Source of the DNA: an uncultured Chitinophagaceae bacterium | Lineage (GTDB): Bacteria > Bacteroidota > Ignavibacteria > UBA10030 > UBA8401 | Length of the DNA: 32,000 nucleotides | Direction of reading: 5' to 3' | Assembly (NCBI GenBank): GCA_964642725.1 | Contig: CAZXQG010000002.1 | Span: forward strand, 101,551-133,550 | Shown here: positions 4,428 through 26,268 of the stretch, one piece after another | How positions within the stretch are numbered: position 1 is the first letter of the stretch | How the letters are laid out: each line of letters starts with the position of its first letter | The notes under the pieces: model-generated | What the model saw: only the letters and a program-made list of their open reading frames with translations | Databases searched by the model: none | Told to the model about the DNA's origin: nothing | Position numbers and translations under genes: made by a program

Positions 4428-4942
4428 TTACGATCCTTCGCGTTGTTAAACTAACTTGTCCCATCTGTTGCAAAATGTTGACCTACTTTCTGATTACTAA
4501 CTCGTCTGCTGCATTTCGATCCCTGCATTTTCTTGCACCAATTGCTACGCAAAAGGCCCTGTTATTCCACTCATTGGAAATTCAGTGGCTTCTCATAACC
4601 CGGTCATCCCCGGTTTCCGTCAAAATGTACGTTAAAAAATATCCAAAAAAAAGCTCAATGTTGGGAGGTGTGAACATCGTTGAAAGGCAGGGAAGCGTGA
4701 GGGATCAAAAAATTGAATATTTGTGTCTAAAAATCGAACTGCTCATTTGTAAGCCAGAGACTTTTCGCTAAACGAATACTCCAGACTAACTGAAAATAAG
4801 GGTTTGCGGCAGCAATGAACGACTTGGTCCACCGAAAAGGAATCATGAGCGGGGGAAAATGCCTTTCGGACGCTTTCTTCTTCTTTGTAGGAGTTTGCGC
4901 TTGAATCTGAGAGCATAATTGCCTGAAATACCTACTTTCTTC

Positions 4943-4970
4943 TTGACAAATCTAAAAAATATACTATATT
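4943..4970 (+). promoter_or_regulatory. sigma70-like promoter candidate for the 5112-10345 operon
   Basis: TTGACA (4943-4948), a 16-nt spacer, then TATATT (4965-4970). This is the only good -35/-10 pair I see in the 684-nt gap on this strand. Confidence 0.35.
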
Positions 4971-5111
4971 TACAAGCAATTAGGCGAGAATTTGCAAGAA
5001 GTATTTAAATTGATTGCGTTAATTACCTCTAAATTGCAACACTGGTTGTTGGGATAATACTGGCGGCTGTATTCGAATTTCCTTTTCAATCACAATGCGC
5101 AGACAAACATT

Positions 5112-6242
5112 ATGCAATCTCGGTACAATTATCTTTTTGCAATTAGTTTCACCGCTATCTTAAGTATTTTACTCTCCTTCACAGCCGAAGCCCAACAACA
5201 AACCCAAAGCCAAGAGTCTCCAGCCGCTGAAGCGAAGTTTCCTTCCACGGAGAATTCTAAGCTCATTTCGATTTTTCCAAAATTCGACATTGCGCTGGAC
5301 ACCGCGTTGGCCGGAATGGCGCCGATATTGAAGGAAGTTAGTCCAAGCATCAGGACGTTGTTGTTGTATAAAACGAAAATCCGTTGGCCGTTCAAAGAAG
5401 AGTTAACATATTCCGAATTTCAATTTCTTTCGAGCTATTTCGAGGGGAAATTAAAAAATGCGTTGATTCGTGACGGGAGATTTGCCGCGGTAGCGGCGCA
5501 AGATTTGAAGACGCTGTCTTTTAAAGCGACGGACAGCACACTTCAAGTGAAGAATACGTATTCTGAGGATGAAATCCATGCCTATGCGAAAGCCCATAAT
5601 GTCGACGGCATTGTGTCCACAGACGTACTGGTTTCTGCGAATCAAATCATAATGTTTGTGAATATTAACGACCTTCATGGTGTTACCGTATGGAGCAAAG
5701 AGCTTAAGGCGGATTATCGGGTAATTCCGACAGATCCCGGTTCCGAACTTGCCGCACAGTATGCTTTGAAAAGAAAAACAGGTTTAATTGAGAACTATTT
5801 GACGGTCGGATTTAACCTTGGAACGCCGTACATTCTCGGAGTCAAGGATACTGCGGGCTCGGTCGGCTTTTATTCGATCGGCTACCGCCTGAACGAGATG
5901 GCGACAATTATGAATTTTCTAAAGTTTTACATAGATTCACGGCTTATAGGAACTTCAAAATTTGGATTGATGGGCGCCATTGTGATGCCCGGCCTTTCGT
6001 TTGAAATTATTGGCAATGACCAGATCGGCCCGGGAATTCTCATGCTCGATGTCGCCGGAGGGTTTGACATCTCATTCAAGAACAACGGCATTGCAGAATC
6101 GTATTACGGCGGACTTTCACTCCGGCTTAGCAGGAATATCGGAGTGACAGGATTTTACAATATCATTTCCATCAATAAAAGTTTCAGCAGCTTTGATATT
6201 GGCGGGCCGCTCTACGGGCTCCAAGTGAATTTTGTTCTTTAA
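5112..6242 (+). CDS. secreted protein with a probable outer-membrane beta-barrel C-terminal half (hypothetical)
   Basis: 376-aa ORF with signal peptide MQSRYNYLFAISFTAILSILLSFTAEA/QQQ. The central domain ends in DGIVSTDVLVSANQIIMFVNINDLHGVTVWSKEL, a pattern I associate with LpoB/CsgG/FlgO-type lipoprotein folds. The C-terminal half has alternating hydrophobic residues and Gly/aromatic-rich strands (GGLSLRLSRNIGVTGFYNII ... LYGLQVNFVL). Confidence 0.7.
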   Translation: MQSRYNYLFAISFTAILSILLSFTAEAQQQTQSQESPAAEAKFPSTENSKLISIFPKFDIALDTALAGMAPILKEVSPSIRTLLLYKTKIRWPFKEELTYSEFQFLSSYFEGKLKNALIRDGRFAAVAAQDLKTLSFKATDSTLQVKNTYSEDEIHAYAKAHNVDGIVSTDVLVSANQIIMFVNINDLHGVTVWSKELKADYRVIPTDPGSELAAQYALKRKTGLIENYLTVGFNLGTPYILGVKDTAGSVGFYSIGYRLNEMATIMNFLKFYIDSRLIGTSKFGLMGAIVMPGLSFEIIGNDQIGPGILMLDVAGGFDISFKNNGIAESYYGGLSLRLSRNIGVTGFYNIISINKSFSSFDIGGPLYGLQVNFVL

Positions 6243-6267
6243 CGAATACGAAGATGAGGGATTGTAT

Positions 6268-6948
6268 ATGAAAAGAGTGTTAGGTCTGGCGCTGTTTTTT
6301 TATGCATTTTGTTCCTGCATCATGGCCCAGGAGAGTTCGACGACGCGCGCTGATTCGACAGCCAAAAGCCAGATGAAATCACAAACGACATCCGCGAAGG
6401 AGAGCGCGACTCCGTCCGCTCCAGCCGCAGTGAAGCTAAACACTCCAACCCTCAATATGGATGTTTTGCTTGACCTGTACAACAAAGATATTGACTTCAC
6501 TATAGATTATTCCGGCAAAGCAGTCAAGCGAAATGAAGAGGAGCAACAACCGAATCGAAGAAAACGCGCCGGCGATGCAACGAACGATTTGCTGAAGCCC
6601 CAAGATGAAGACCTTGCATCGGATATTCAGGACATTGTCGACACATCAAAAGTAAAAAAGAAACAGCCGCGGCAAGGGACGTATACAAAGGATGATGCCG
6701 ATTATAACAAAGCGTTGTACAGCCTTCAAGAAGCGCAGACTCTTTTTTCTGAACGCCGGTACGCGCAGGCGCTTGGCGAGATTAATAAATCAGTAGATGC
6801 CGCACCGAATATGGCGCTCGCATACGCCGTCCGCGGTTCAATTTATTATATGTTGAGGCAGTTTCCCGAAGCAAAACTTAGCTGGGAAAAAGCGCTCGAA
6901 CTTGACCCGTCGATGGACAATGTGCGGGCGATACTCTATCGAATGTAA
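6268..6948 (+). CDS. secreted TPR-repeat protein
   Basis: I prefer ATG 6268 (MKRVLGLALFFYAFCSCIMAQ signal peptide, GAGGGA upstream) over the track start at 6232. A Ser/Thr/Lys-rich low-complexity linker is followed by C-terminal TPR units (YAQALGEINKSVDAAPNMALAYAVRGSIYYMLRQFPEAKLSWEKALELDP). Confidence 0.75.
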   Translation: MKRVLGLALFFYAFCSCIMAQESSTTRADSTAKSQMKSQTTSAKESATPSAPAAVKLNTPTLNMDVLLDLYNKDIDFTIDYSGKAVKRNEEEQQPNRRKRAGDATNDLLKPQDEDLASDIQDIVDTSKVKKKQPRQGTYTKDDADYNKALYSLQEAQTLFSERRYAQALGEINKSVDAAPNMALAYAVRGSIYYMLRQFPEAKLSWEKALELDPSMDNVRAILYRM

Positions 6949-6966
6949 TTAACTGAAAGGTCCAGT

Positions 6967-7815
6967 ATGAATTCGACTTTCATCGGATATGTTCTTTTTG
7001 GAATTGCCGCCTACGTTCTTCTGATTGTCGGTGCGCAATCGGAGACAGTCGATGCGCTGCAAAAAGGATATATTCCGGACTCGCTGATTCACTACGTGCA
7101 TATTCCGGGTATTATTTTTGTTTTTTTTGGCGTGAGTTCTTCCATGCTCATTAGCTATAACTTCCGGGAATTGTTCGGGGCCGCCCGTTCATTGTATTTC
7201 GTGTACATAAAGAACAAGTTGAATTTTTCAACGTACCTGGAAACAATAAAAGATATTGCTCAATATTCCAATACGCATGACATTGAGTCGCTCGAAGATT
7301 ATGCAAATCAAATACGGTACCCGTTCCTGCGCGACGGGGTATTGATGCTCGTCAATGGATATAAGAAGGAAGAAATTAAAGAAATTCTTGATGCCCGGAT
7401 AGATAATGAATCGCAGCGCGAGTTTTCTGACGTCAACGTTTTTAGAGCCGCTGCACGCTACTCACCCGGGTACGGCATGCTTGGAACCACGGTCGGATTG
7501 ATTCAAATGTTTTCGACGAAGATCGACGCCGCCGCGGGCTTCGGGCCGATTCTGCAGGCGCTGGCAGTGGCGTTTACGACGACATTATACGGCCTGTTCC
7601 TTTCCAATTTTATTTTTGCCCCGTTTGCAGACAAGATCGAGAAACGGACAGATGAAGAAGCCCTTCTCAAGAGCATGATTGTTGAAGGCTTATGTCTTAT
7701 CAAAGACAAGAGACATCCCGTTTTCATTCAAGACAAGCTTTCGTCCTATATTCCGCAGAGTCGTGCGCTCTCGGTTCCGGCGGTCTCGCAACTCTCCCCT
7801 GAAAGCGGAGGATGA
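6967..7815 (+). CDS. motA: flagellar-type stator protein MotA/PomA family
   Basis: 282 aa with a 4-TM MotA layout: two N-terminal TMs, a cytoplasmic loop of roughly 100 aa containing PFLRDGVLMLVNGYKKEEIKEILD, then SPGYGMLGTTVGLIQMF and ALAVAFTTTLYGLFLSNFIFAPFADKI (both conserved Pro positions are present). GAAAGG lies upstream of the ATG. Confidence 0.9.
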   Translation: MNSTFIGYVLFGIAAYVLLIVGAQSETVDALQKGYIPDSLIHYVHIPGIIFVFFGVSSSMLISYNFRELFGAARSLYFVYIKNKLNFSTYLETIKDIAQYSNTHDIESLEDYANQIRYPFLRDGVLMLVNGYKKEEIKEILDARIDNESQREFSDVNVFRAAARYSPGYGMLGTTVGLIQMFSTKIDAAAGFGPILQALAVAFTTTLYGLFLSNFIFAPFADKIEKRTDEEALLKSMIVEGLCLIKDKRHPVFIQDKLSSYIPQSRALSVPAVSQLSPESGG

Positions 7816-8489
7816 TGATGGTAAGAAGACGGATTAGGCGAAGAGCAGATGAGCAGCATTGGCAGGTCAGTTATATTGACTTGCTGACTGCTATGCTCGC
7901 TTCTTTTACACTGTTGCTATCGCTTTCGATTCCCGATCAGTCCAAACTCGATAGTCTTGCATCTTCAGTGACCGAAGCTGCAAAGCAGCAGGCAAACTTG
8001 GGCACCCTCTCAAAAGAACTGTTGTCAACTATTGAAAAAAATTCTTCCCTGAAAGGACAAGTTAATGTCGTCATGACGGACGCGGGCATCGAGTTGCGTT
8101 TCGGCAGCAATTTGCTCTTCCCCCCGGGGAAAGCCGCGTTGCGGCCGGAAGGTTATGACGCAATTTTCAGCATCGGCAAAATACTCGGGTATTTCGTCAA
8201 GGCGCGGAACGCGTTCATTTCCGTGGAAGGGCATACGGACGATACACCTCTTCGGAGCACCGTTGAATTTCGATCGAACTGGGAATTGTCTTCAGCGAGA
8301 GCGACAGAAGTTGTTCACTATTTGCAGGATACCGTATCGATTGAAGGTAAACGCCTCTCAAGCACGGGGTTTGCCGACGCCCGTCCGCAGAACAAAGACA
8401 AAGACCCTGTAACCGGCCAATTCACCGAAAAAGCACGCAACGACAATCGGCGTGTCGTCATCCGGATCTACTACCACAGCGACGTGTAG
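7812..8489 (+). CDS. motB: flagellar-type stator protein MotB (OmpA-like peptidoglycan-binding C-terminus)
   Basis: 225 aa. An ATGA overlap joins it to motA. The TM segment WQVSYIDLLTAMLASFTLLL carries the conserved channel Asp (codon 7878-7880). The OmpA-like block is NWELSSARATEVVHYL ... GFADARP ... NRRVVI. Confidence 0.9.
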   Translation: MMMVRRRIRRRADEQHWQVSYIDLLTAMLASFTLLLSLSIPDQSKLDSLASSVTEAAKQQANLGTLSKELLSTIEKNSSLKGQVNVVMTDAGIELRFGSNLLFPPGKAALRPEGYDAIFSIGKILGYFVKARNAFISVEGHTDDTPLRSTVEFRSNWELSSARATEVVHYLQDTVSIEGKRLSSTGFADARPQNKDKDPVTGQFTEKARNDNRRVVIRIYYHSDV

Positions 8490-8527
8490 CGCTCGAATTT
8501 GTTATCTCAAACATTCTCGGAACAAAT

Positions 8528-10345
8528 ATGAAAACCCGATTGACAAGGATTATTCTTCTGCTTGTTGTATTTTTGCAGGCGAGGCTTTTTGCCGTCGATC
8601 TCGAGCTTGAAAAAAAGAAAATGGAACGAGACTTGGAGGATCGGATTTCGATGGAAATCCGCCGCTATTTTTCAGACCTCAACTTTCTCGTTACCGCGGA
8701 AGTAACGCTTGTGGATTTGTCAGCACCGGCAAAGAAAGATAAGGGCGAAAATAGGGATTTTCTTCTTCCGGGAGTATCCGGCTTTCAGTCGCAATCTCAG
8801 AATGGAGATGAATCCGAGAGGCCGCAAATTGGCGTCGAGTCTGTCATCATTAAGATGCTCATCGATAAAAATAGAACGCCTGAAGAAAGAGACTTGCTGA
8901 CGAACATCGCTTTTTATACGGGCAAATTGAACAAGGTGCGGGGAGACAGGGTCGATTTGCAGGAGATGTCATTTCCCGCCAGCACTCTTCAGATACAGCG
9001 GGAACAACAAAAGGCCGAACAAGAAAAACAGATCCAGGAGCTTGAAAAGGAAAGGCAAGATGCTGAGTTGAGGGCTGCACAGAAATCCGGCAACGATTCG
9101 ACATCGGCAAGGCAGCAGGAATCATTTCTCAATACGACCTCATTGCTGCTGATCGCGCTTGGTCTCTTAATTGTGGTTCTCATCGTCGTACTTCTTATGA
9201 GAGGGAAGAAGCAAGAGGCTGCTGAAGGTCAGATGCCGGTGCAGCAGATGATGCAGGGAGAAGAGAATCAGATTTCTACTGGACGACAAGCGGTTGTCGA
9301 CTCGAATGCCGATTATCAAGAGGCAATCGAAGTCGATAAAGTACGGTCAAATCTTATCGTAACGTGTGCCGGCGAATCGGACCTGACATCGCACGTCATC
9401 CGGGATATGATCGCCGACGCAAATCAAAAAGACAGGCTGACCGTCATCATAGGTCAACTTGGCAAGAATGTATTGCAAGTCATGCGCGACCATTTCTCGA
9501 TCGAAGAAATGAAAGCTCTTCAGACACTTACGCTGGATAGACAAGAACGGACTCTCGCAGAAACCCGGGAAGCTTTGACTTTTTTCCAAAATCAACTTGC
9601 AGTAAAAAGGTTTTCAGAGGCCGGAAATGCAAAACAAAGTCCGTTTGCCTTTCTTGAAAAATTGTCCGAGCCCCAGCTGTATTTACTGATGAAAGACGAA
9701 CCGCCGGGAATTATCGCAATTATCCTATCCCAGCTTGCGACTCCGATTGCAAGCTCCATGCTGAAAAACCTCCCGTCAATGCAGCAGGGGGAAGTGGCGT
9801 TGGAGTTGGGAAAATTACGGCGGCTCACCTCGGATACCTACGTTTCGGTTGCAAAACAGTTGGCTGCAAAAGCTGCTACGATTCCGGTAATTAATAATGT
9901 TCAGGTTCAGGGGACCGACTTATTGTTGGATATCTTCGACAACATAGATGAAACGTCGGAATCTTCGATTATTGAATTCATCAAAGTAGTCAATCTTGAT
10001 TTGTATAGGGAAATCACGAGCCAACGGGTTTCGTTCAACGCAATCAATCACTTGGACGAAAGAGTGCTTCGTCAGATTGTCAAGGATATTTCTGGAGACG
10101 AGATTGCGATCGCTTTGAAGAATGCCCCGCCTGAAATATCCGAGCGATTCCTCTCGGTGCTTCCTTCGAAATCCCGCATCATTCTCGAAGACAGGCTCAC
10201 TTCAATGAAGGCAGTATCTCCCGATGACGAGTTGAAGGCGCGGAGAAGAATTACAAGAATGGTGAGGCAATATATCAAGGCGGGCGGCGTGCAAGCTTCA
10301 GCATTAGAAACGGGAGAAGAGACTGAAGAAGCTCAGATTCAATAA
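8528..10345 (+). CDS. membrane-anchored FliG-like protein: FliF-like (RBM + TM) N-terminal module fused to FliG N/M/C domains
   Basis: 605 aa. Residues 1-23 form a signal peptide or TM. Residues 33-148 are RBM-like (ERDLEDRISMEIRRYF..VTAEVTL; IGVESVIIKMLID..RGDRVDLQEM). Residues 155-185 form a Glu/Gln/Lys coiled coil. A TM spans residues 204-224 and is followed by RGKK. Residues 300-590 align by eye with FliG: EPPGIIAIILSQL..LKNLPSMQQGEV against the EHPQTIALILS..LP..Q.EV block, and LDERVLRQIVKDISGDEIAIALKNAPPEISERFLSVLPSKSRIILEDRL against the FliG_C torque-helix region. Confidence 0.8.
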   Translation: MKTRLTRIILLLVVFLQARLFAVDLELEKKKMERDLEDRISMEIRRYFSDLNFLVTAEVTLVDLSAPAKKDKGENRDFLLPGVSGFQSQSQNGDESERPQIGVESVIIKMLIDKNRTPEERDLLTNIAFYTGKLNKVRGDRVDLQEMSFPASTLQIQREQQKAEQEKQIQELEKERQDAELRAAQKSGNDSTSARQQESFLNTTSLLLIALGLLIVVLIVVLLMRGKKQEAAEGQMPVQQMMQGEENQISTGRQAVVDSNADYQEAIEVDKVRSNLIVTCAGESDLTSHVIRDMIADANQKDRLTVIIGQLGKNVLQVMRDHFSIEEMKALQTLTLDRQERTLAETREALTFFQNQLAVKRFSEAGNAKQSPFAFLEKLSEPQLYLLMKDEPPGIIAIILSQLATPIASSMLKNLPSMQQGEVALELGKLRRLTSDTYVSVAKQLAAKAATIPVINNVQVQGTDLLLDIFDNIDETSESSIIEFIKVVNLDLYREITSQRVSFNAINHLDERVLRQIVKDISGDEIAIALKNAPPEISERFLSVLPSKSRIILEDRLTSMKAVSPDDELKARRRITRMVRQYIKAGGVQASALETGEETEEAQIQ

Positions 10346-10367
10346 GTGCAAGACCAATCACATGTGA

Positions 10368-10402
10368 GAGGAGCGCTTTAAAGAAAGTGCTCCTCTTTTT
10401 TT
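10368..10402 (+). terminator. Rho-independent terminator of the motor operon
   Basis: GAGGAGCGC (10368-10376) pairs with GTGCTCCTC (10387-10395) as a 9-bp stem with one G-U and a 10-nt loop, followed by T7 (10396-10402). It begins 23 nt after the stop codon. Confidence 0.7.
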
Positions 10403-13717: not shown

Positions 13718-14085
13718 GGGGGTGAATGGTCTCGACGGGGTTGAAGATGGTTAGACAGAAGCATACCGTGCTCTCCGAGTCGCACGTTAATAAAGCGGAA
13801 CCAACTTAAGTGCAGACTACAACTACGCACTCGCTGCTTAACTAAACATTAACAGCGCATCTTCATGAAGCTCTACCTGACTAGTTTCATGCAAGGTGTC
13901 GACTTCAGTCGGGCGTGCTAATATCAACGCTGGAGCGATATTAGTGAAGATCGATGCCAGATAGCTTCGGGATTGGTGAGTTCATCCAACCGGCTCGAGG
14001 CGAATGTTCACGAGATGGACTGAGTATGGAGAAGGTCTAATGGTCATCACTCCGGACCGGGGTTCGAATCCCCGCACCTCCACTA
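13718..14085 (+). ncRNA. ssrA: tmRNA (SsrA)
   Basis: The 5' end is GGGGGTGAATGGTCTCGACGGGG. The 3' end is GGGGTTCGAATCCCCG CACCTCC A CTA. The acceptor stem GGGGGTG/CACCTCC has the G3-U pair. The internal tag reading frame at 13797-13841 encodes GTNLSADYNYALAA followed by a stop codon; the resume codon is uncertain. Confidence 0.9.
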
Positions 14086-18264: not shown

Positions 18265-18762
18265 CTATTCTATAAGAAAAAGCAATTCACCTTTATTAAC
18301 GACCTGCCTGTCAACGACATGCACTTTTTTTATGATCCCTTCCTTTGTCGCGCGTATTTCATTTTCCATTTTCATCGCTTCTAATACGAGCAGCCCATCC
18401 CCCGCCTCAACTCGTTCTCCCTCCTTGACTTCACAACGAACAACCATTCCCGGCATGGGAGAACGCACTTCTGTGGCCGAGTGTTTTTTCGGTAATGCAG
18501 CGGACCGAAGAACAGCCAATTGCGTCCCAGAGGTCTCGACCCCTACCCTATAGATATTTCCATGGATTATGATCCCATATATGAGATCATTTCTAGTGAT
18601 TGTACCATGAAATGACCTGCCGTTTAAGATCAGGGAAAAACGTCCCGAAGATATTTTTTGTATATCAGCCTGAATAATTTTTCCATCCAATAATATCGAG
18701 CCGTCCCCCTCAAATGACCATTTATACTGTTTATCGTTGATGCTGGCAATGAGTGTTGGCAT
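18265..18762 (-). CDS. biotin carboxyl carrier (biotin/lipoyl attachment domain) protein
   Basis: About 165 aa with the biotinylation motif [10 protein letters not shown] in a C-terminal hybrid-barrel domain. ATG 18762 lies just after the accC stop; the track uses GTG 18765. Confidence 0.85.
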
Positions 18763-18765
18763 CAC

Positions 18766-20265
18766 TTATTCTTCGATTCGATTATATTTCCAGCGACCTT
18801 GATTTGCGGCTTGCTCTTTTCGATCGTTCGAAGACTCTGAAGTGGAACGATGCACAGCAGCAGCAATTAGTGAAGCGGCTAATTCCGTATTGGAATTGGG
18901 AGTTACTTCGTTTGGATGATAATATTTCTCGACAAACTGGTTATCGTACTTGCCGCCGACAAAACTCGGATGCGAAACAACGAATCGGCAGAAAGGGATT
19001 GTAGTTGCTACTCCGGAGAGTACATATTCTGAGAGGGCTCGGTCCATCCTTTTGATTGCTTCGTTACGGTCCGCACCCCACGCTATCAATTTGGCCAGCA
19101 AGGGATCATAGAAATGAGCAACAGTTGTTCCCGTCATAACTCCGGAATCATGCCTGATTCCGTATCCTTCGCTTGGAGCATACTCTTCAATAGTTCCCGT
19201 GGAAGGAAAGAAATTATCATCTGGATCTTCCGCGCATATCCTGCATTCGATCGCATGACCTCGTGGAGAAACAGTCTCTTGCAAGTAAGGCAATGGTTCA
19301 CCCTGTGCGATTTTGATCTGCGCTTTCACCAAATCAATGCCGTAGACCAACTCTGTAACCGGATGCTCAACCTGAAGACGTGTGTTCATTTCGAGGAAAT
19401 AGAAAGCACTCTTCGAGTCCACTAAAAATTCAACCGTTCCTGCACTAACGTACCCGGACTCTCGGGCCGCATTGACAGCGGCTTTCCCCATCGCTTGTCT
19501 CAAAGGCTCTGACAAATCAGAACTAGGACATTCCTCGACAAGTTTTTGATGTCTTCGTTGAATCGAACACTCTCTTTCCCCCAAAAAGATTACGTTCCCA
19601 TGCATGTCTGCGAGGATCTGAATTTCAATGTGCCGCGGACTCAACAGATACTTTTCAATAAACACATCAGCGCTCCCGAACGCCTTAAGCGACTCTGATT
19701 GCGCTTGCCGCAACGATTGTTCAAGTTCATCCTCCCGCTCGACCTTTCTCATCCCCTTTCCCCCGCCGCCATGAACAGCCTTAATTAATACCGGATATTC
19801 AATCTGTTGAGCTACATTAATTGCTTGACTATAATCCTTTACTGGAGCGATGGTTCCGGGTAATATCGGAACCTTTGCTTTCTGCATCAATTCGCGGGCT
19901 GCAGTCTTACTTCCCAGTTTTTTCATCGCAGAAGAAGGCGGTCCGATGAAAGTCAATCCTTCTGAAATTACTGCGTCAACGAAATCAGGGTTTTCGGAAA
20001 GGAACCCGTATCCGGGGTGGATCGCATCGCAATGTGATTTTTTTGCGACGGCAATTATCTTTTGTATGTCGAGATACGTGTCTCTTGAAAGGTTGCCATG
20101 AAGGGGGTAAGCTTCGTTTGAATTAAAGACATAGGGAGCACAACGGTCTATATCCGAAAAAACCGCCACCGTTTCAATACCCATTTCCGATGCAGAGCGG
20201 TGAATGCGCAAGGCGATTTCCCCGCGATTGGCAATGAGCAATTTTTTAATCCGTTTTGGCCTCAT
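18766..20265 (-). CDS. accC: biotin carboxylase (acetyl/acyl-CoA carboxylase alpha component)
   Basis: 499 aa with KLLIANRGEIALRI, the ATP-grasp block GGGGKGMR and EMNTRLQVEHPVTE. Confidence 0.93.
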   Translation of the reverse strand: MRPKRIKKLLIANRGEIALRIHRSASEMGIETVAVFSDIDRCAPYVFNSNEAYPLHGNLSRDTYLDIQKIIAVAKKSHCDAIHPGYGFLSENPDFVDAVISEGLTFIGPPSSAMKKLGSKTAARELMQKAKVPILPGTIAPVKDYSQAINVAQQIEYPVLIKAVHGGGGKGMRKVEREDELEQSLRQAQSESLKAFGSADVFIEKYLLSPRHIEIQILADMHGNVIFLGERECSIQRRHQKLVEECPSSDLSEPLRQAMGKAAVNAARESGYVSAGTVEFLVDSKSAFYFLEMNTRLQVEHPVTELVYGIDLVKAQIKIAQGEPLPYLQETVSPRGHAIECRICAEDPDDNFFPSTGTIEEYAPSEGYGIRHDSGVMTGTTVAHFYDPLLAKLIAWGADRNEAIKRMDRALSEYVLSGVATTIPFCRFVVSHPSFVGGKYDNQFVEKYYHPNEVTPNSNTELAASLIAAAVHRSTSESSNDRKEQAANQGRWKYNRIEE

Positions 20266-22637
20266 TCGTTTCTAAGGTCGACAATAGTTACTCCCATCCC
20301 TCCCTCATTCCACTCGCCAAAATGGTGCGACTTGATTCTTGAGTCAGACTCTAGAAACGAAGTGATTTTTTTTCTGAGCGCACCCGAACCTTTTCCATGT
20401 ATAATATCTACACGATGTAATCCTGTGTAAATGGCACTATCAATGAACTTATCGACTGCTTGTAATGCTTCATCGCCATATAATCCCCTGACATCGATTT
20501 CGCGCTGTGGAACTGCCTCCAAAAGAACTGGCGCAAAAGACTGACCCCTTTTCTCCGTTCTTGAAATCGGAACAACATCGTTGGCGTGTATTTTTATTTT
20601 TAGATTGTCGAAAGCAACTTGAAGGATTCCATTGGCGTCCGGCGGCTGTAAGACTTCGCCTATCTGAGAATTTGATCTCAACCTAACCGTTGTTCCCTTT
20701 GTTATTTTACTGTATTCCGTAAAACCGGGAGCACCGGATTCTATTTCGTCTAGAGCTTTTTCCATGACAAGAATTTCATTCTCCAGCATTTTGATGTCTT
20801 GCTTGCTTTCAACAATCGAATGTTTATCGGCCTGGTGCTGCCGAATTTCCCTGATGGACTTTTCAATGATAGAGTTTGCCTTGTTCACGATCTCTTTTGC
20901 TTCTTCGACAGCTTTTGACTTTAGCGACTTAATTTCCTCTCGCGATCCTTTTAATTTTATTTCATAATTACTAATTAACTCTTTAAATTTGAGTTTTTCA
21001 GCATCAATGATCGCAAGTTGCTTTGCGATAAATTGTGAACGACTTTCAAGGTCGACGATTAATTTTTCAAGCCGCGACTTTTGCTCTCCTGCCATTTTTT
21101 CAGCATCGGAAATTATCGCCGGCGGAACTCCGAGCCGCCGTGCGATTTCCAATGCGTAGCTGCTTCCTGGAACGCCAAATCTAAAATTAAAGGTCGGTGT
21201 CAGCGTTGTCTGATCAAACTCCATGGCACCATTCTCCATGCCCTCGGTCTCGTGTACAAATGCCTTCAGTGTTACCTGGTGTGTTGTCGCAATTGTCAGT
21301 GCCCCCGCTTTGGTCAATTGAGCTAAAATGACGGCTGCGAGCGCGCCCCCTTCGGCCGGGTCGGTGCCGGCACCTATTTCGTCGATGAGGATTAAGCTGT
21401 GTTCATCTGCCGAACTAAGAATGCCCTTGAGCATCGTAATGTGCGAACTAAATGTGCTAAGGTCGTTTTCGATGGATTGGTCATCGCCGATATCAACAAA
21501 TATTTTCTTAAACAGTGGAAATTCTGAATCTGCGGATGCCGGCAGATGGAGTCCGCATTGCAGCATTAACACCAAAACACCGATAGTCTTCATCGCAACG
21601 CTTTTACCCCCAGCATTGGGGCCCGTGATAAGTAAGGTATTGTAGCCATTTCCCAGTTCTATGGACAATGGAATTATCTTTTCCCGTGAATGACGGAGGA
21701 GGAGAATAGGGTGTCGTGCTTCAACAATTTTCAGAGAACCAAATTCTTTTAGAAACGGCTTATTGCCTTTAATTTCAATCGAATATCTAGCCTTAGCATA
21801 AATTAAATCTAGGTGTTGAAGCTCATCAAGGCTTTTCAGCAAATCCGGAAAAACCTCTCGGACTTGCAGCGTCAGCAGCCGAAGGATCTTTTCAATCTCA
21901 CGCTGCTCTTTGAAATGTAGTTCTCGAATTTCATTGTTAAGTGACAGTGTTTCTGCAGGCTCGATGAAAACAGTTGAACCGCTTGCCGAGGAACTGTGAA
22001 TGAAGCCGGGGACGCTGCGTTTTTGTTCCACTTTAACGGGGATCACCATCCTGCCGTCCCGCGTCGTGATAATATCATCTTGTGTAAGCCCCTGTTCAGA
22101 AACGCTTTTCAGAATGCGTTCCAGTTGTTTACGCAGCAATTCGTACATTGAAACTAATTCGATCCTAATTGTCCGCAATTCTTTACTTGCGGTATCTTTT
22201 ATATTTCCATTCTCATCAATAGCTTGGAGGATATTATACTCAAGTATCTTATTGATGCTTATATGTTCACAAAAAGCGTGTAACTCGAGATACGCTTCTT
22301 TTCTCTTCTGAATGAACGTCTTAATATTTTTTGCGGCTTGGAGGGTTTGGGCGATTGAAAAAAGTTCGGATGTCCCAAGAATGCTGTTTTCTATGCCGGC
22401 TCTCTGGAGGGGCTCTCGGACATCCTTCAACCCATCAATTGGAAATGGATCATCGCTCTCCAGGAGTTTCTTCATCTCGTCCACTCGATTAAGCTCTAGT
22501 GTCAGGACGTTCAAATCCTCGGTCGGGGTGACATGCTCCGCAGCGATCCTGCCTAATTCAGACGATGCATAGCCTTGCAAACGACCGAGTATCTTTTTGA
22601 ATTCAAGCTTTTCGGCTGCAGATTGGAATTCGGTCAT
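20262..22637 (-). CDS. mutS2: endonuclease MutS2 (MutS domain V ATPase + C-terminal Smr)
   Basis: 791 aa with the Walker A motif TGPNAGGKS, LIDEIGAGTDPAEG and a C-terminal Smr domain (IDVRGLYGDEA ... IIHGKGSGALR). Confidence 0.93.
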   Translation of the reverse strand: MTEFQSAAEKLEFKKILGRLQGYASSELGRIAAEHVTPTEDLNVLTLELNRVDEMKKLLESDDPFPIDGLKDVREPLQRAGIENSILGTSELFSIAQTLQAAKNIKTFIQKRKEAYLELHAFCEHISINKILEYNILQAIDENGNIKDTASKELRTIRIELVSMYELLRKQLERILKSVSEQGLTQDDIITTRDGRMVIPVKVEQKRSVPGFIHSSSASGSTVFIEPAETLSLNNEIRELHFKEQREIEKILRLLTLQVREVFPDLLKSLDELQHLDLIYAKARYSIEIKGNKPFLKEFGSLKIVEARHPILLLRHSREKIIPLSIELGNGYNTLLITGPNAGGKSVAMKTIGVLVLMLQCGLHLPASADSEFPLFKKIFVDIGDDQSIENDLSTFSSHITMLKGILSSADEHSLILIDEIGAGTDPAEGGALAAVILAQLTKAGALTIATTHQVTLKAFVHETEGMENGAMEFDQTTLTPTFNFRFGVPGSSYALEIARRLGVPPAIISDAEKMAGEQKSRLEKLIVDLESRSQFIAKQLAIIDAEKLKFKELISNYEIKLKGSREEIKSLKSKAVEEAKEIVNKANSIIEKSIREIRQHQADKHSIVESKQDIKMLENEILVMEKALDEIESGAPGFTEYSKITKGTTVRLRSNSQIGEVLQPPDANGILQVAFDNLKIKIHANDVVPISRTEKRGQSFAPVLLEAVPQREIDVRGLYGDEALQAVDKFIDSAIYTGLHRVDIIHGKGSGALRKKITSFLESDSRIKSHHFGEWNEGGMGVTIVDLRNE

Positions 22638-24371: not shown

Positions 24372-24627
24372 AACCTAATATATCGTACAACGAGACGAAA
24401 ATCAATCCGCCTCACTTTTGCATAGTAGATTGCGGGATTCCTTAACGAGAAGATCGCATATGACGAAATTATTTATATGGTAAATTAACAAAGTCGTCGA
24501 CATCTGCCCAATCAACGGACATCAGGTCATGACATTGAAGTATGCCTTAACTGTTAATAAGCAAATTGATTCTTACGACATTAGCGTGTATATTATACAT
24601 ATTTTCATTCACTATCTGAGAGATCCG

Positions 24628-26268
24628 ATGGATTGGATTGATTACAAACAGATCCAAAATTTTGAAGTTGGCATCACACCGTTGTTCGTAGATTATCTCA
24701 ATGATTTTGAAAAGCTGAAAGACTATTACTCTGGCGATTTTCGAGACCGTAAGAGCTGGAAGAAGCTCATAGAAAATGTAGTCGCTAAACAAAAAGACCG
24801 TTCAACGCTCGTTCGCGTTCTTACGGAACAGAACAAACAATACCACTGCGGTATACGAACCTTAGCCAATATTGATCTGCTCGGGAACGAAAATACCGTT
24901 GCTGTTGTCACCGGCCAGCAAGTGGGAATGTGTACAGGTCCGCTCTACACGATTTACAAAACAATTACCGCTATTAAACTCGCCGAACAGTTATCCGCTC
25001 AATTTCCCGAATATAACTTTGTCCCTGTCTTTTGGGTTGAAAATGAAGACCATGATTTTGATGAAATCAATAAGGTTAATGTCATCAATCCAAACGGAGA
25101 CATTACGACAATAGAATATTTAATCGGAGGGAAGCCGTTTGAAAAAAATCCCGGTCCTGTTGGCAATATTGTGATTGACAGCTTTGTCGAAAAGTTCCTT
25201 GAAGATATCCGGGCACAGCTTCAGGAAACGGAATTCAAAGGGCAATTGTTTGATTCGCTGCACGGATATTATCGGCCGGGTTCAACCTTGGGAACGGCTT
25301 TTGTCGGTTTATTGAGCGGTCTGTTCGAAGATTCGGGCCTGGTTTTCCTGGACCCCGGGAATGCGGAACTGAAACGAATTCTGAAGCCGGTTTTCCAAAA
25401 AGAAATTGCCGCAATGTCCAAGACTTCTCAAATAGTCATTGATACGAGTGCCGGGCTTGAGGAGCACTATCATGCGCAGATCAAGGCAAAGTCGATAAAC
25501 CTTTTTATGTTCCATAAAGGCGGCCGGTATCTTATTGAGCCGAGGGAAAATGATTTCAGCCTCAAGGGGACGAGGCAGTTTTTTTCAAAGGAAGAATTGA
25601 ACGCCATTATTGAACATTCTCCCGAACTGATATCTCCAAACGTTGTTTTGAGGCCGATTTGTCAAGACACTATCTTACCGACGCTTGCCTATGTTGGAGG
25701 TCCGTCGGAGATTGCCTATTTTGGACAGTTAAAATCAGTCTATGAATTCTTTGAAGTTGATATGCCTGTTGTGTATCCTCGCGCAAGCATTACGATTATG
25801 GAAGAAAAAGTAAAAAATATCCTCGAAAAATTTCAGATAGATTTTACAGAAATTTGGTCGGACATCGACCCCCTTCTGGCACGGATTGCAGAACAAGTGT
25901 CGGAAGTCAAGGTCGATGCGTTGTTTGAGCAACTCCATTGCCGTCTTCGCGAAGCTGTTGCGGAGTCGCGTTTTGGCATTCAACAAATCGACCCGACTCT
26001 TTCGGGTGCAATAGATTCAACTTTGTCGCGGATTGAGTCGCAACTGAATGTTCTAAAGGAAAAGACTCAGGCGGCTCAGCAGCGTAGGCAAGAAGTAACG
26101 ATAAAGCAGATTCAGAAGGTTGCTGCAAACATCTTCCCTAAATCGAATTTTCAGGAAAGAGAATTCAACGTAGTGTATTACATGAATAAGTATGGGCCGG
26201 ATTTCGTAAAGTGGCTGAGCGGAGAAGTTATCATCGACCGGTTCCAGCATCAACTCATCGAATTATGA
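24628..26268 (+). CDS. bshC: bacillithiol biosynthesis cysteine-adding enzyme BshC
   Basis: VVTGQQVGMCTGPLYTIYKTITAIKLA ... FWVENEDHDFDEIN matches the B. subtilis BshC (YllA) core. I prefer ATG 24628 (MDWIDYKQI, 546 aa). The 33-codon track extension is AT-rich and looks like promoter sequence. Confidence 0.85.
   Translation: MDWIDYKQIQNFEVGITPLFVDYLNDFEKLKDYYSGDFRDRKSWKKLIENVVAKQKDRSTLVRVLTEQNKQYHCGIRTLANIDLLGNENTVAVVTGQQVGMCTGPLYTIYKTITAIKLAEQLSAQFPEYNFVPVFWVENEDHDFDEINKVNVINPNGDITTIEYLIGGKPFEKNPGPVGNIVIDSFVEKFLEDIRAQLQETEFKGQLFDSLHGYYRPGSTLGTAFVGLLSGLFEDSGLVFLDPGNAELKRILKPVFQKEIAAMSKTSQIVIDTSAGLEEHYHAQIKAKSINLFMFHKGGRYLIEPRENDFSLKGTRQFFSKEELNAIIEHSPELISPNVVLRPICQDTILPTLAYVGGPSEIAYFGQLKSVYEFFEVDMPVVYPRASITIMEEKVKNILEKFQIDFTEIWSDIDPLLARIAEQVSEVKVDALFEQLHCRLREAVAESRFGIQQIDPTLSGAIDSTLSRIESQLNVLKEKTQAAQQRRQEVTIKQIQKVAANIFPKSNFQEREFNVVYYMNKYGPDFVKWLSGEVIIDRFQHQLIEL

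Follow-up and report, generated by a model that had tools for sequence, protein, structure and literature searches.

The window studied here is a 32,000-nucleotide (nt) stretch of DNA from an uncultured Chitinophagaceae bacterium (GTDB lineage Bacteria; Bacteroidota; Ignavibacteria; UBA10030; UBA8401; contig CAZXQG010000002.1, positions 101,551 to 133,550). It contains five consecutive genes for an outer-membrane protein (OMP), a protein with tetratricopeptide repeats (TPR), a MotA-like and a MotB-like stator subunit, and a predicted fusion of FliF-like and FliG-like parts. By their domain content, conservation and linkage these five genes are one conserved module. We lean, with modest confidence, towards the reading that the locus encodes a free-standing, ion-driven rotor-stator machine, which descends from the flagellar motor's core but is not a flagellum.

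An initial annotation, made from the letters of the DNA, had proposed five co-directional genes separated by 25, 18, -4 and 38 nt. All open reading frames (ORFs) are found where it placed them, with lengths given below in amino acids (aa). The ATG of the motB-like gene overlaps the stop codon of the motA-like gene by 4 nt.

5112-6242, + strand: OMP gene, 376 aa (ORF listing)
6268-6948, + strand: TPR gene, 226 aa from its ATG; the longest ORF begins at a TTG at 6232 (ORF listing)
6967-7815, + strand: motA-like gene, 282 aa (ORF listing)
7812-8489, + strand: motB-like gene, 225 aa; public gene calls begin at 7818 and give 223 aa
8528-10345, + strand: fusion gene, 605 aa (ORF listing)

The FliF-FliG fusion protein

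Judged from sequence profiles and a structural model, the 605-aa protein, the putative rotor subunit, joins FliG to a FliF RBM3-like domain and a transmembrane helix in one natural fusion. Its parts are encoded as follows.

8597-9142, + strand: periplasmic part, aa 24-205 (model, Foldseek and family alignment)
9143-9199, + strand: single transmembrane helix, aa 206-224, followed by the basic stretch RGKK (hydropathy scan)
9281-10306, + strand: cytoplasmic FliG-like part, aa 252-593, with equivalents of the N-, M- and C-domains (profile hidden Markov models (HMMs), PDB match and Foldseek)

The protein had been described as a membrane-anchored FliG that carries every FliG domain. The first half of this description is borne out: a transmembrane helix accompanies the FliG domains, and the periplasmic part is FliF-like both by Foldseek and by YscJ_FliF_C matches in relatives. 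The helix is present in all 25 superfamily members that were aligned, and in the AlphaFold model of the window protein (pLDDT 67.6) its region forms a helix from 203 to 232. The second half stands only in part. FliG_M (E-value 3e-13) and FliG_C (1.6e-19) are detected in Pfam, both above their gathering scores, whereas FliG_N escapes the HMM in the window protein. The claim of a complete set is therefore based on structure and on relatives. In Foldseek the cytoplasmic part can be superposed on FliG over its full length (3hjl, 3.4e-10, 315 columns), so that N-, M- and C-domains would all be present, and FliG_N is found at its proper place in two relatives when these are scanned at full length with Pfam. 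In a search of the PDB the protein matches Thermotoga maritima FliG (1lkv) at 5.8e-22, and the Vibrio FliFG structure 8z4d is also among its matches.

The N-terminus is a hydrophobic segment that resembles a cleavable signal peptide, ending in A-Q in the relatives. In the model, the periplasmic part consists of a helix followed by an alpha-beta-beta-alpha-beta domain that is split between strands 1 and 2. The insertion at the split (aa 65-98) is disordered in the model and holds an invariant LPG, while an invariant RGD closes the RBM. A coiled-coil or helical stalk (aa 153-186) follows, and its length differs by 50-70 residues between lineages. Such a split RBM, interrupted between strands 1 and 2, has been described for FliF RBM3 and for SpoIIIAG (PMC4768692). 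Both the split fold and the transmembrane helix after it that are expected of an RBM3 domain are found here.

At the structural level, Foldseek matches the periplasmic part to many FliF RBM3/S-ring structures, with E-values from 5e-3 to 2e-2 and a probability of 1.0. At the sequence level YscJ_FliF_C (PF08345) is found in the N-terminal domain of 13 of 20 more distant relatives, the best at 9.6e-6; in full-length scans of relatives it scores 17.8-23.7 bits, against a gathering score of 23.8. A profile search of the PDB with the periplasmic domain returned no FliF, SctJ or SpoIIIAG chain at E<=10.

In the C-terminal domain, K548 is the equivalent of R281 in Escherichia coli FliG; it is invariant in the close family and K or R throughout the superfamily. 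Within the close family K531 (equivalent to K264) and D/E556 (equivalent to D288) are conserved too. The EHPQR motif, through which FliG binds FliM, has been lost and reads DEPPG...E in the fusion. Against the fliG model TIGR00207 the protein scores 89.8 bits, the equivalog cut-off being 226.7. NCBI names such proteins 'FliG C-terminal domain-containing protein' or 'hypothetical', and NCBIfam release 20.0 contains no model specific to them.

A stator of the flagellar type

Of the families named in the initial annotation, MotA_ExbB, MotB_plug, OmpA and TPR are detected by profile HMMs. The stator belongs to the flagellar type: PomA/MotA structures can be aligned with it from one end to the other, while TolQ reaches only E=0.06.

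The 282-aa protein matches Pfam MotA_ExbB at 7.5e-21. Its best PDB matches are MotA (9lu9, 1.5e-28) and PomA (8bri, 1.9e-27), both over nearly the full length. In NCBIfam the MotP model gives 149 bits (cut-off 394) and PomA 132 bits, both under their equivalog cut-offs. Since the stator scores under every flagellar equivalog cut-off of NCBIfam, we regard it as a divergent member of the stator family. Between the second and third transmembrane helices it has a large cytoplasmic domain, a feature that a recent survey treats as a mark of flagellar stators (PMC12505986).

Among 16 family members D105, E107 and E110 of the MotA-like protein are invariant, and the channel prolines are conserved. By alignment E110 is the equivalent of E96 in PomA and of E98 in E. 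coli MotA, the latter being the partner of R281 in FliG. As to whether the MotA proteins of the modules are monophyletic, the window MotA is no nearer to those of distant modules (23-29% identity) than to Vibrio PomA (31%). We also note that MotA proteins of the close family carry about 15-25 additional residues (about 24-45) in the periplasmic loop between the first two transmembrane helices, compared with PomA and with the MotA proteins of distant modules.

For the 225-aa protein, Pfam gives MotB_plug at 1.4e-8 and OmpA at 2.2e-15, and in NCBIfam it is MotD/MotS-like, under the cut-offs. The essential transmembrane aspartate (D23) is conserved, also in the distant loci, and both the plug and the OmpA-type peptidoglycan-binding domain are present.

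Two exported envelope proteins

The operon also encodes two exported envelope proteins, as predicted: both the OMP and the TPR protein have a signal peptide.

The 376-aa OMP has no family in Pfam or NCBIfam. Behind the signal peptide, its AlphaFold model (pLDDT 69.5) shows a periplasmic domain of the alpha/beta kind (about aa 50-200), and aa 229-375 form a C-terminal barrel of eight strands. Foldseek matches the periplasmic domain to the C-domain of LpoB (4q6l, 7e-6) and to the N-terminal region of TolB. The barrel is of the OmpA/OmpX type (OmpA 1bxw, 2.8e-5). The OMP accompanies the fusion protein in every close-family locus that is long enough to show it.

In the 226-aa protein, the signal peptide is followed by a low-complexity region, a conserved segment (about aa 50-82) and C-terminal TPRs (aa 140-222; Pfam TPR_2 at 6e-9 and TPR_1 at 9e-8). 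MotX, PflA/B and CpoB were considered as possible counterparts, and were set aside as NCBIfam and the PDB yield only generic TPR matches.

Conservation of the module

We scanned one genome per species in 185,579 species for the close family. The fusion protein is found in 20 of these representatives, all of them uncultured metagenome-assembled genomes (MAGs) that are labelled Bacteroidota, Bacteroidetes, Ignavibacteriae or, as a bin default, Chitinophagaceae. The view that the block is self-contained is strongly supported by its neighbourhoods: the same five genes occur in the same order on every contig of sufficient length, even where identity of the fusion protein is as low as 41%.

Compared with one relative (L005), the five proteins of the block are 78-96% identical, while the adjacent GCV_T protein is 54% identical. 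MotA and MotB have kept 93-96% identity while their synonymous divergence is saturated. Where synonymous divergence (dS) is not saturated, the ratio of nonsynonymous to synonymous divergence (dN/dS) is 0.01-0.05 in the block. As judged from these alignments, the block is under strong purifying selection.

The flanks vary by lineage: the window has a permease, L025 has murC-ftsQ-ftsA-ftsZ, and L026 and L027 have cox genes together with secG. In nine other genomic contexts examined, flagellar genes are absent within about 10 kb, with the exception of L032, described below.

A profile search of 1.84 billion cluster representatives extends the family to a wider superfamily. There are 3,248 matches at E<=1e-3, and 119 proteins, as representatives of 50%-identity clusters, reach E<=1e-30. 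The profile is matched over its whole length, periplasmic part included, by more than 100 proteins that are 560-780 aa long and each stand for one 50%-identity cluster. In the alignment, at about 20% identity, the architecture is preserved, as are the LPG in the insertion and the RGD at the end of the RBM. Two superfamily members could be named, one from a Gammaproteobacteria MAG and one from a Pseudomonadota MAG. A homology search with the distant-family alignment returned the close family only.

Six distant loci were studied. In L028 and L030 the order is FliGx-OMP-TPR-MotA-MotB, where FliGx denotes the fusion gene. In L029, from the Gammaproteobacteria MAG, a Sel1/SPOR gene is followed by MotA-MotB-372 aa-TPR-FliGx, with the 372-aa protein in the place of the OMP, and then by genes of the Wza/Wzc/Wzy type. 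In L031 and L033 a barrel-like protein of about 210 aa comes with TPR-FliGx, and L032 has two genes without assignment, a TPR gene and FliGx. The TPR gene adjoins the fusion gene in all six loci. They are joined by motAB in three loci and by a candidate OMP in five, L032 having no evident one. HMMs of the window families recover the distant TPR, MotA, MotB and fusion proteins, the TPR genes at 1e-20 to 5e-27. The OMP is recovered more weakly, in two of three loci (L028 and L030). That the same parts stay together although the gene order is permuted is strong evidence of a functional unit.

Some neighbours of the module deserve mention. In L025 (1480-6223) it lies directly after murC-ftsQ-ftsA-ftsZ, in L029 (5191-6663 and 12614-18819) beside the Sel1/SPOR-domain gene and a Wza/Wzc/Wzy polysaccharide-export cluster, and in L030 (1592-7338) after TamB/Omp85. 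These envelope and division neighbours may hint at the role of the module or may be coincidence. L025 also encodes, at 18591-21806, a protein of more than 1,885 aa with beta-helix repeats, an FlgD_ig domain and a weak Por_Secre_tail match, which suggests that this host has a type IX secretion system. The 90%-identity cluster to which the L032 fusion protein belongs has 131 member sequences.

Boundaries and surroundings of the operon

The promoter candidate and the strong terminator that had been proposed as the borders of the operon were both located.

4943-4970, + strand: promoter-like site, TTGACA-16 nt-TATATT, sigma-70-like with 11 of 12 matches
4971-5111, + strand: untranslated leader of about 140 nt (alignment of five lineages)
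10366-10397, + strand: intrinsic-terminator-like hairpin of 14 pairs, 6 of them G-C, with a loop of 4, followed by TTTTT

Promoter-like sites are overall no more frequent in this region than in shuffled sequence (9 found against 7.8 expected). The site at 4943-4970 is invariant in five lineages (the window, L005, L007, L009 and L012), among which the proteins of the block go down to about 63% identity. Its invariant strings are TTGACAAA.CTAAA and TATA.TTA. The DNA just upstream of the site cannot be aligned among these lineages. Within the leader CAATTA, CAAG, TAA.TTG.TTGCG.TAATT and, before the ATG, GCAGACAAAC are invariant, and no Shine-Dalgarno sequence is evident before the first ATG. The leader could be an operator or an element of translation control. 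A riboswitch or another known RNA was considered for the 684-nt upstream gap and rejected: the Rfam scan gave no family for either the leader or the gap, and a proposed long-range pairing in the leader lacks covariation.

A 98-aa ORF at 4475-4771 (+ strand) lies inside this gap between the permease and the operon, and public assemblies annotate it. It has no family match and is located upstream of the conserved promoter, in a stretch over which related loci cannot be aligned; it is probably no real gene.

The remainder of the window is housekeeping and, as the initial annotation had it, contains no other flagellar gene. The block is flanked by an amino-acid permease on one side and a GCV_T/YgfZ-type protein on the other, as expected. 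The other genes include RibD_C, GAF, LOG, DAP epimerase, PurL, AccB/AccC, MutS2, CvpA, YqeY, SDR, BshC, an ABC ATPase, AroA, PNPase, RibF and a tmRNA gene. The tmRNA gene is complete at 13718-14085 on the + strand (Rfam RF00023, 153 bits, E=1.2e-60), between a Transglut_core2 gene and dapF, and its presence explains why about 400 nt before dapF are free of ORFs. From the BshC homologue at 24529-26268 on the + strand (Rossmann-like_BshC, 3e-116), the source organism probably makes bacillithiol.

Comparison with known systems

The working parts of the module are closest to the rotor-stator core of the flagellar motor, yet it does not qualify as a flagellum. As in the flagellum, the stator is of the MotA/MotB type and aligns with PomA/MotA, with the channel aspartate, the plug and the OmpA-type peptidoglycan-binding domain on MotB. 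The putative rotor has FliG N-, M- and C-type domains, a basic residue equivalent to R281 and a split RBM3-like domain. In contrast, FliF and FliG are joined in one polypeptide, which starts with a signal peptide instead of the first transmembrane helix and has lost the FliM motif. A flagellum has a soluble FliG of about 330 aa, which binds the FliF C-terminus and, via EHPQR, FliM; here the protein is fused, membrane-anchored and 605 aa long. Likewise, a full FliF places RBM1, RBM2 and RBM3 around the FliPQR/FlhAB gate, while here RBM1 and RBM2 are absent and one RBM3-like domain stands alone. The module includes neither export gate, rod, hook and filament nor FliM/N and che; two unrelated envelope proteins are linked to it instead.

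A natural FliF-FliG fusion has a precedent, the nearest described being a shorter protein of Chlamydiaceae (PMC4768692). It too unites in one polypeptide a signal sequence, a short periplasmic region of the RBM type, an anchor in the membrane and a cytoplasmic part homologous to FliG. The bacteria that have it are not thought to be flagellated, and it has been discussed in relation to the injectisome (PMC4768692). However, the Chlamydiaceae protein is about 330 aa long and has two transmembrane helices, and its periplasmic domain is RBM2-like, with no RBM3/SpoIIIAG-like one; of FliG it has an M-like region only, with no torque-generating C domain, and no MotAB has been reported (PMC4768692). 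The published description thus sets it apart from the module protein, with its 605 aa, one transmembrane helix, RBM3-like domain and FliG N-, M- and C-domains. Engineered fusions are also known: those in Salmonella still assemble and rotate flagella (cited in PMC4768692), and Vibrio FliFG fusions form 34/35-mer rings (PDB 8z4d/8z4g; PMC11481574). Unlike the module protein, these are artificial, contain full-length FliF with three RBMs and act inside a complete flagellum.

In its overall plan the module also resembles Tol-Pal (TolQ-TolR-TolA-TolB-Pal-CpoB): both have an ion-driven stator, a transducer anchored in the inner membrane, an outer-membrane-associated partner of the TolB-N/LpoB-type fold and a secreted TPR protein, encoded by one envelope-spanning operon. 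The parts themselves differ. The stator of the module is of the MotA/PomA type (TolQ being matched at the E-value given above), the transducer derives from FliF/FliG and not from TolA, and peptidoglycan binding resides on MotB. Pfam and NCBIfam give no match to the families of TolA, the TolB beta-propeller or Pal.

Periplasmic TPR or Sel1 repeat proteins accompany MotAB-type stators also in high-torque flagella, as accessory stator scaffolds: the Vibrio T-ring (MotX/MotY) and, in Campylobacter, PflA/PflB. Those proteins decorate a complete basal body, whereas the TPR protein of the module gave generic TPR matches only. GldLM of type IX secretion, AglRQS-Glt, ExbBD-TonB and ZorAB each combine a small ion-driven stator with a dedicated output protein on the envelope; we know of none among them with a FliG-type partner. 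A 2025 survey of MotAB stators lists no non-flagellar system linked to FliG (PMC12505986), and another survey suggests that rotor components might have another function (PMC12199754).

The initial annotation did not recognise the combination as a described system, and we found no account of it in the searchable literature, subscription-only papers aside. What looks new and undescribed is the occurrence of flagellar rotor-stator components in a self-contained, non-flagellar module.

Proposed mechanism and alternatives

In the machine that we favour, copies of the fusion protein would assemble into a ring in the membrane, which would present a small ring like the S-ring to the periplasm and a ring of FliG to the cytoplasm. 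A ring is expected because RBM3 builds the S-ring in FliF and because engineered FliF-FliG fusions form rings. MotA5B2 units would be anchored to peptidoglycan by MotB, and ion flow would drive MotA against the FliG C-domain, where the invariant acidic patch of MotA (D105, E107 and E110) would lie opposite K548 and K531 of the FliG part. The transmembrane helix and the coiled-coil stalk in the periplasm would transmit the movement of the ring to the RBM ring, which would engage the TPR protein and the LpoB/TolB-N-like domain of the OMP.

The output would be mechanical work on the envelope or surface, such as maintenance of the outer membrane or peptidoglycan, surface movement or the export of surface polymers. 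Envelope work is expected rather than swimming or type III secretion, since the module has no export gate, rod, hook, filament or FliM/FliN. The loss of the EHPQR motif fits a rotor without a switch complex. For an output in division or the envelope there are weak hints, namely ftsQAZ in one lineage, and SPOR and polysaccharide-export genes in another.

A further claim is more tentative, and we hold it rather less firmly than the one above: that the module is a distinct kind of rotary machine, a self-sufficient envelope-spanning motor, made of about five proteins, whose MotAB turns a minimal FliF-FliG ring for non-flagellar work, and which would be present in Bacteroidota/Ignavibacteria as well as in Gammaproteobacteria/Pseudomonadota MAGs. 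Such a machine could be a streamlined derivative of the flagellar motor or a surviving relative of a rotor-stator unit older than the export and axial parts of the flagellum.

Several observations weigh against a free-standing rotor-stator machine. The link to the stator is not universal, as L031, L032 and L033 have no adjacent motAB. In L032 (1-1497 and 6403-11917) the fusion gene, of a distant subfamily, is found 8 kb downstream of fliO-fliP-fliQ; the host likely has flagellar or type III export genes beside the fusion, which might borrow stators encoded elsewhere. The charge pairing between FliG and MotA is kept only in part. In the FliG part the equivalent of D289 is R, H or K and that of R297 is S, and in the MotA-like protein the position of MotA R90 (PomA R88) is N102 and variable, so that the second charge pair, MotA R90 with FliG D289, is not preserved. 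The window fusion protein has no FliF match at the sequence level, the link being structural and through sub-threshold matches in relatives. Ring formation and rotation are deduced from genes and monomer models, both models being of moderate confidence (pLDDT 67.6 and 69.5), and we infer the roles of the OMP and the TPR protein from co-occurrence alone. Finally, the source genome, known here from 32 kb, may also be flagellated.

The main alternative, which we consider unlikely, is that the fusion protein is a force transducer that forms no closed rotating ring. Single copies or small oligomers would then be moved by MotAB via the FliG domain, in the manner of TolA/TonB or GltG/J, for Tol-Pal-like tethering of the outer membrane, for constriction or for the transport of surface adhesins. 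The parallel with Tol-Pal speaks for it: there are two stator subunits, a periplasmic protein anchored in the inner membrane, an OMP with the LpoB/TolB-N fold and a secreted protein with C-terminal TPRs like CpoB. So do the variation of the periplasmic stalk by 50-70 residues between lineages, the operon directly after murC-ftsQ-ftsA-ftsZ in one lineage and the Sel1/SPOR-domain gene before motA in the Gammaproteobacteria MAG. However, the division-gene neighbourhood is seen in one lineage only, and the periplasmic domain has the fold and motifs of FliF RBM3, which is known for ring building. The cytoplasmic part appears to be a complete FliG, a ring in every known case, and the stator is flagellar-type with a large cytoplasmic domain, not TolQ/ExbB.

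It is quite improbable that the locus holds the displaced rotor and stator genes of an ordinary flagellum, with the remainder elsewhere in the genome. Some cultured Ignavibacteria are flagellated, and one distant relative of the fusion lies near fliO-fliP-fliQ. Against this, the fusion lacks RBM1 and RBM2 of FliF, which hold the export gate in flagella (PMC11481574), the FliM-binding EHPQR motif is gone and the score of 89.8 bits is far from the fliG cut-off of 226.7. The genes to which it is linked encode a barrel protein of the outer membrane and a TPR protein and are not fliE/F/H/I/M/N, and the scan of 185,579 species gave 20 uncultured MAGs and no cultured flagellate.

A functionless, decaying relic of a lost flagellum has very little to recommend it. 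Rotor proteins without filament genes do occur in 11% of non-motile species (PMC12199754), but here five ORFs are intact in 20 species-level genomes, with dN/dS of 0.01-0.05 where measurable and MotA/MotB 93-96% identical despite saturated synonymous divergence. The promoter and leader are conserved, and the module persists across phyla with shuffled gene order.

Equally implausible is a Zorya-like anti-phage defence built on a MotAB-type stator: MotB matches the ZorB models of PADLOC at 2.4e-23, but these are generic MotB models and the only matches that PADLOC yields to this or any other defence system, no ZorA, ZorC/ZorD or nuclease/helicase gene (PADLOC and Pfam) and no ZorE/F/G (PADLOC) is found, MotA is of normal length without the long cytoplasmic tail of ZorA, and the flanks are housekeeping instead of a defence island.

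Significance

To our knowledge FliG is treated as a flagellum-specific rotor protein, and all the non-flagellar 5:2 motors that we know of use another partner. If our reading of a free-standing rotor-stator machine is true, the torque-generating core of the flagellum can exist and be selected on its own. The module would then offer a minimal system of about five proteins for studies of rotor-stator coupling and ring assembly. It would also bear on the evolution of the flagellum, that is on which came first, the motor module or the secretion module.

Further, it would explain some of the rotor proteins that are found without a filament in non-motile genomes, a pattern that has been called unexplained (PMC12199754). 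The module is a concrete candidate for the other function of rotor components that was raised there. For the organisms themselves, the finding would point to an envelope function in abundant uncultured bacteria of groundwater, freshwater and soil.

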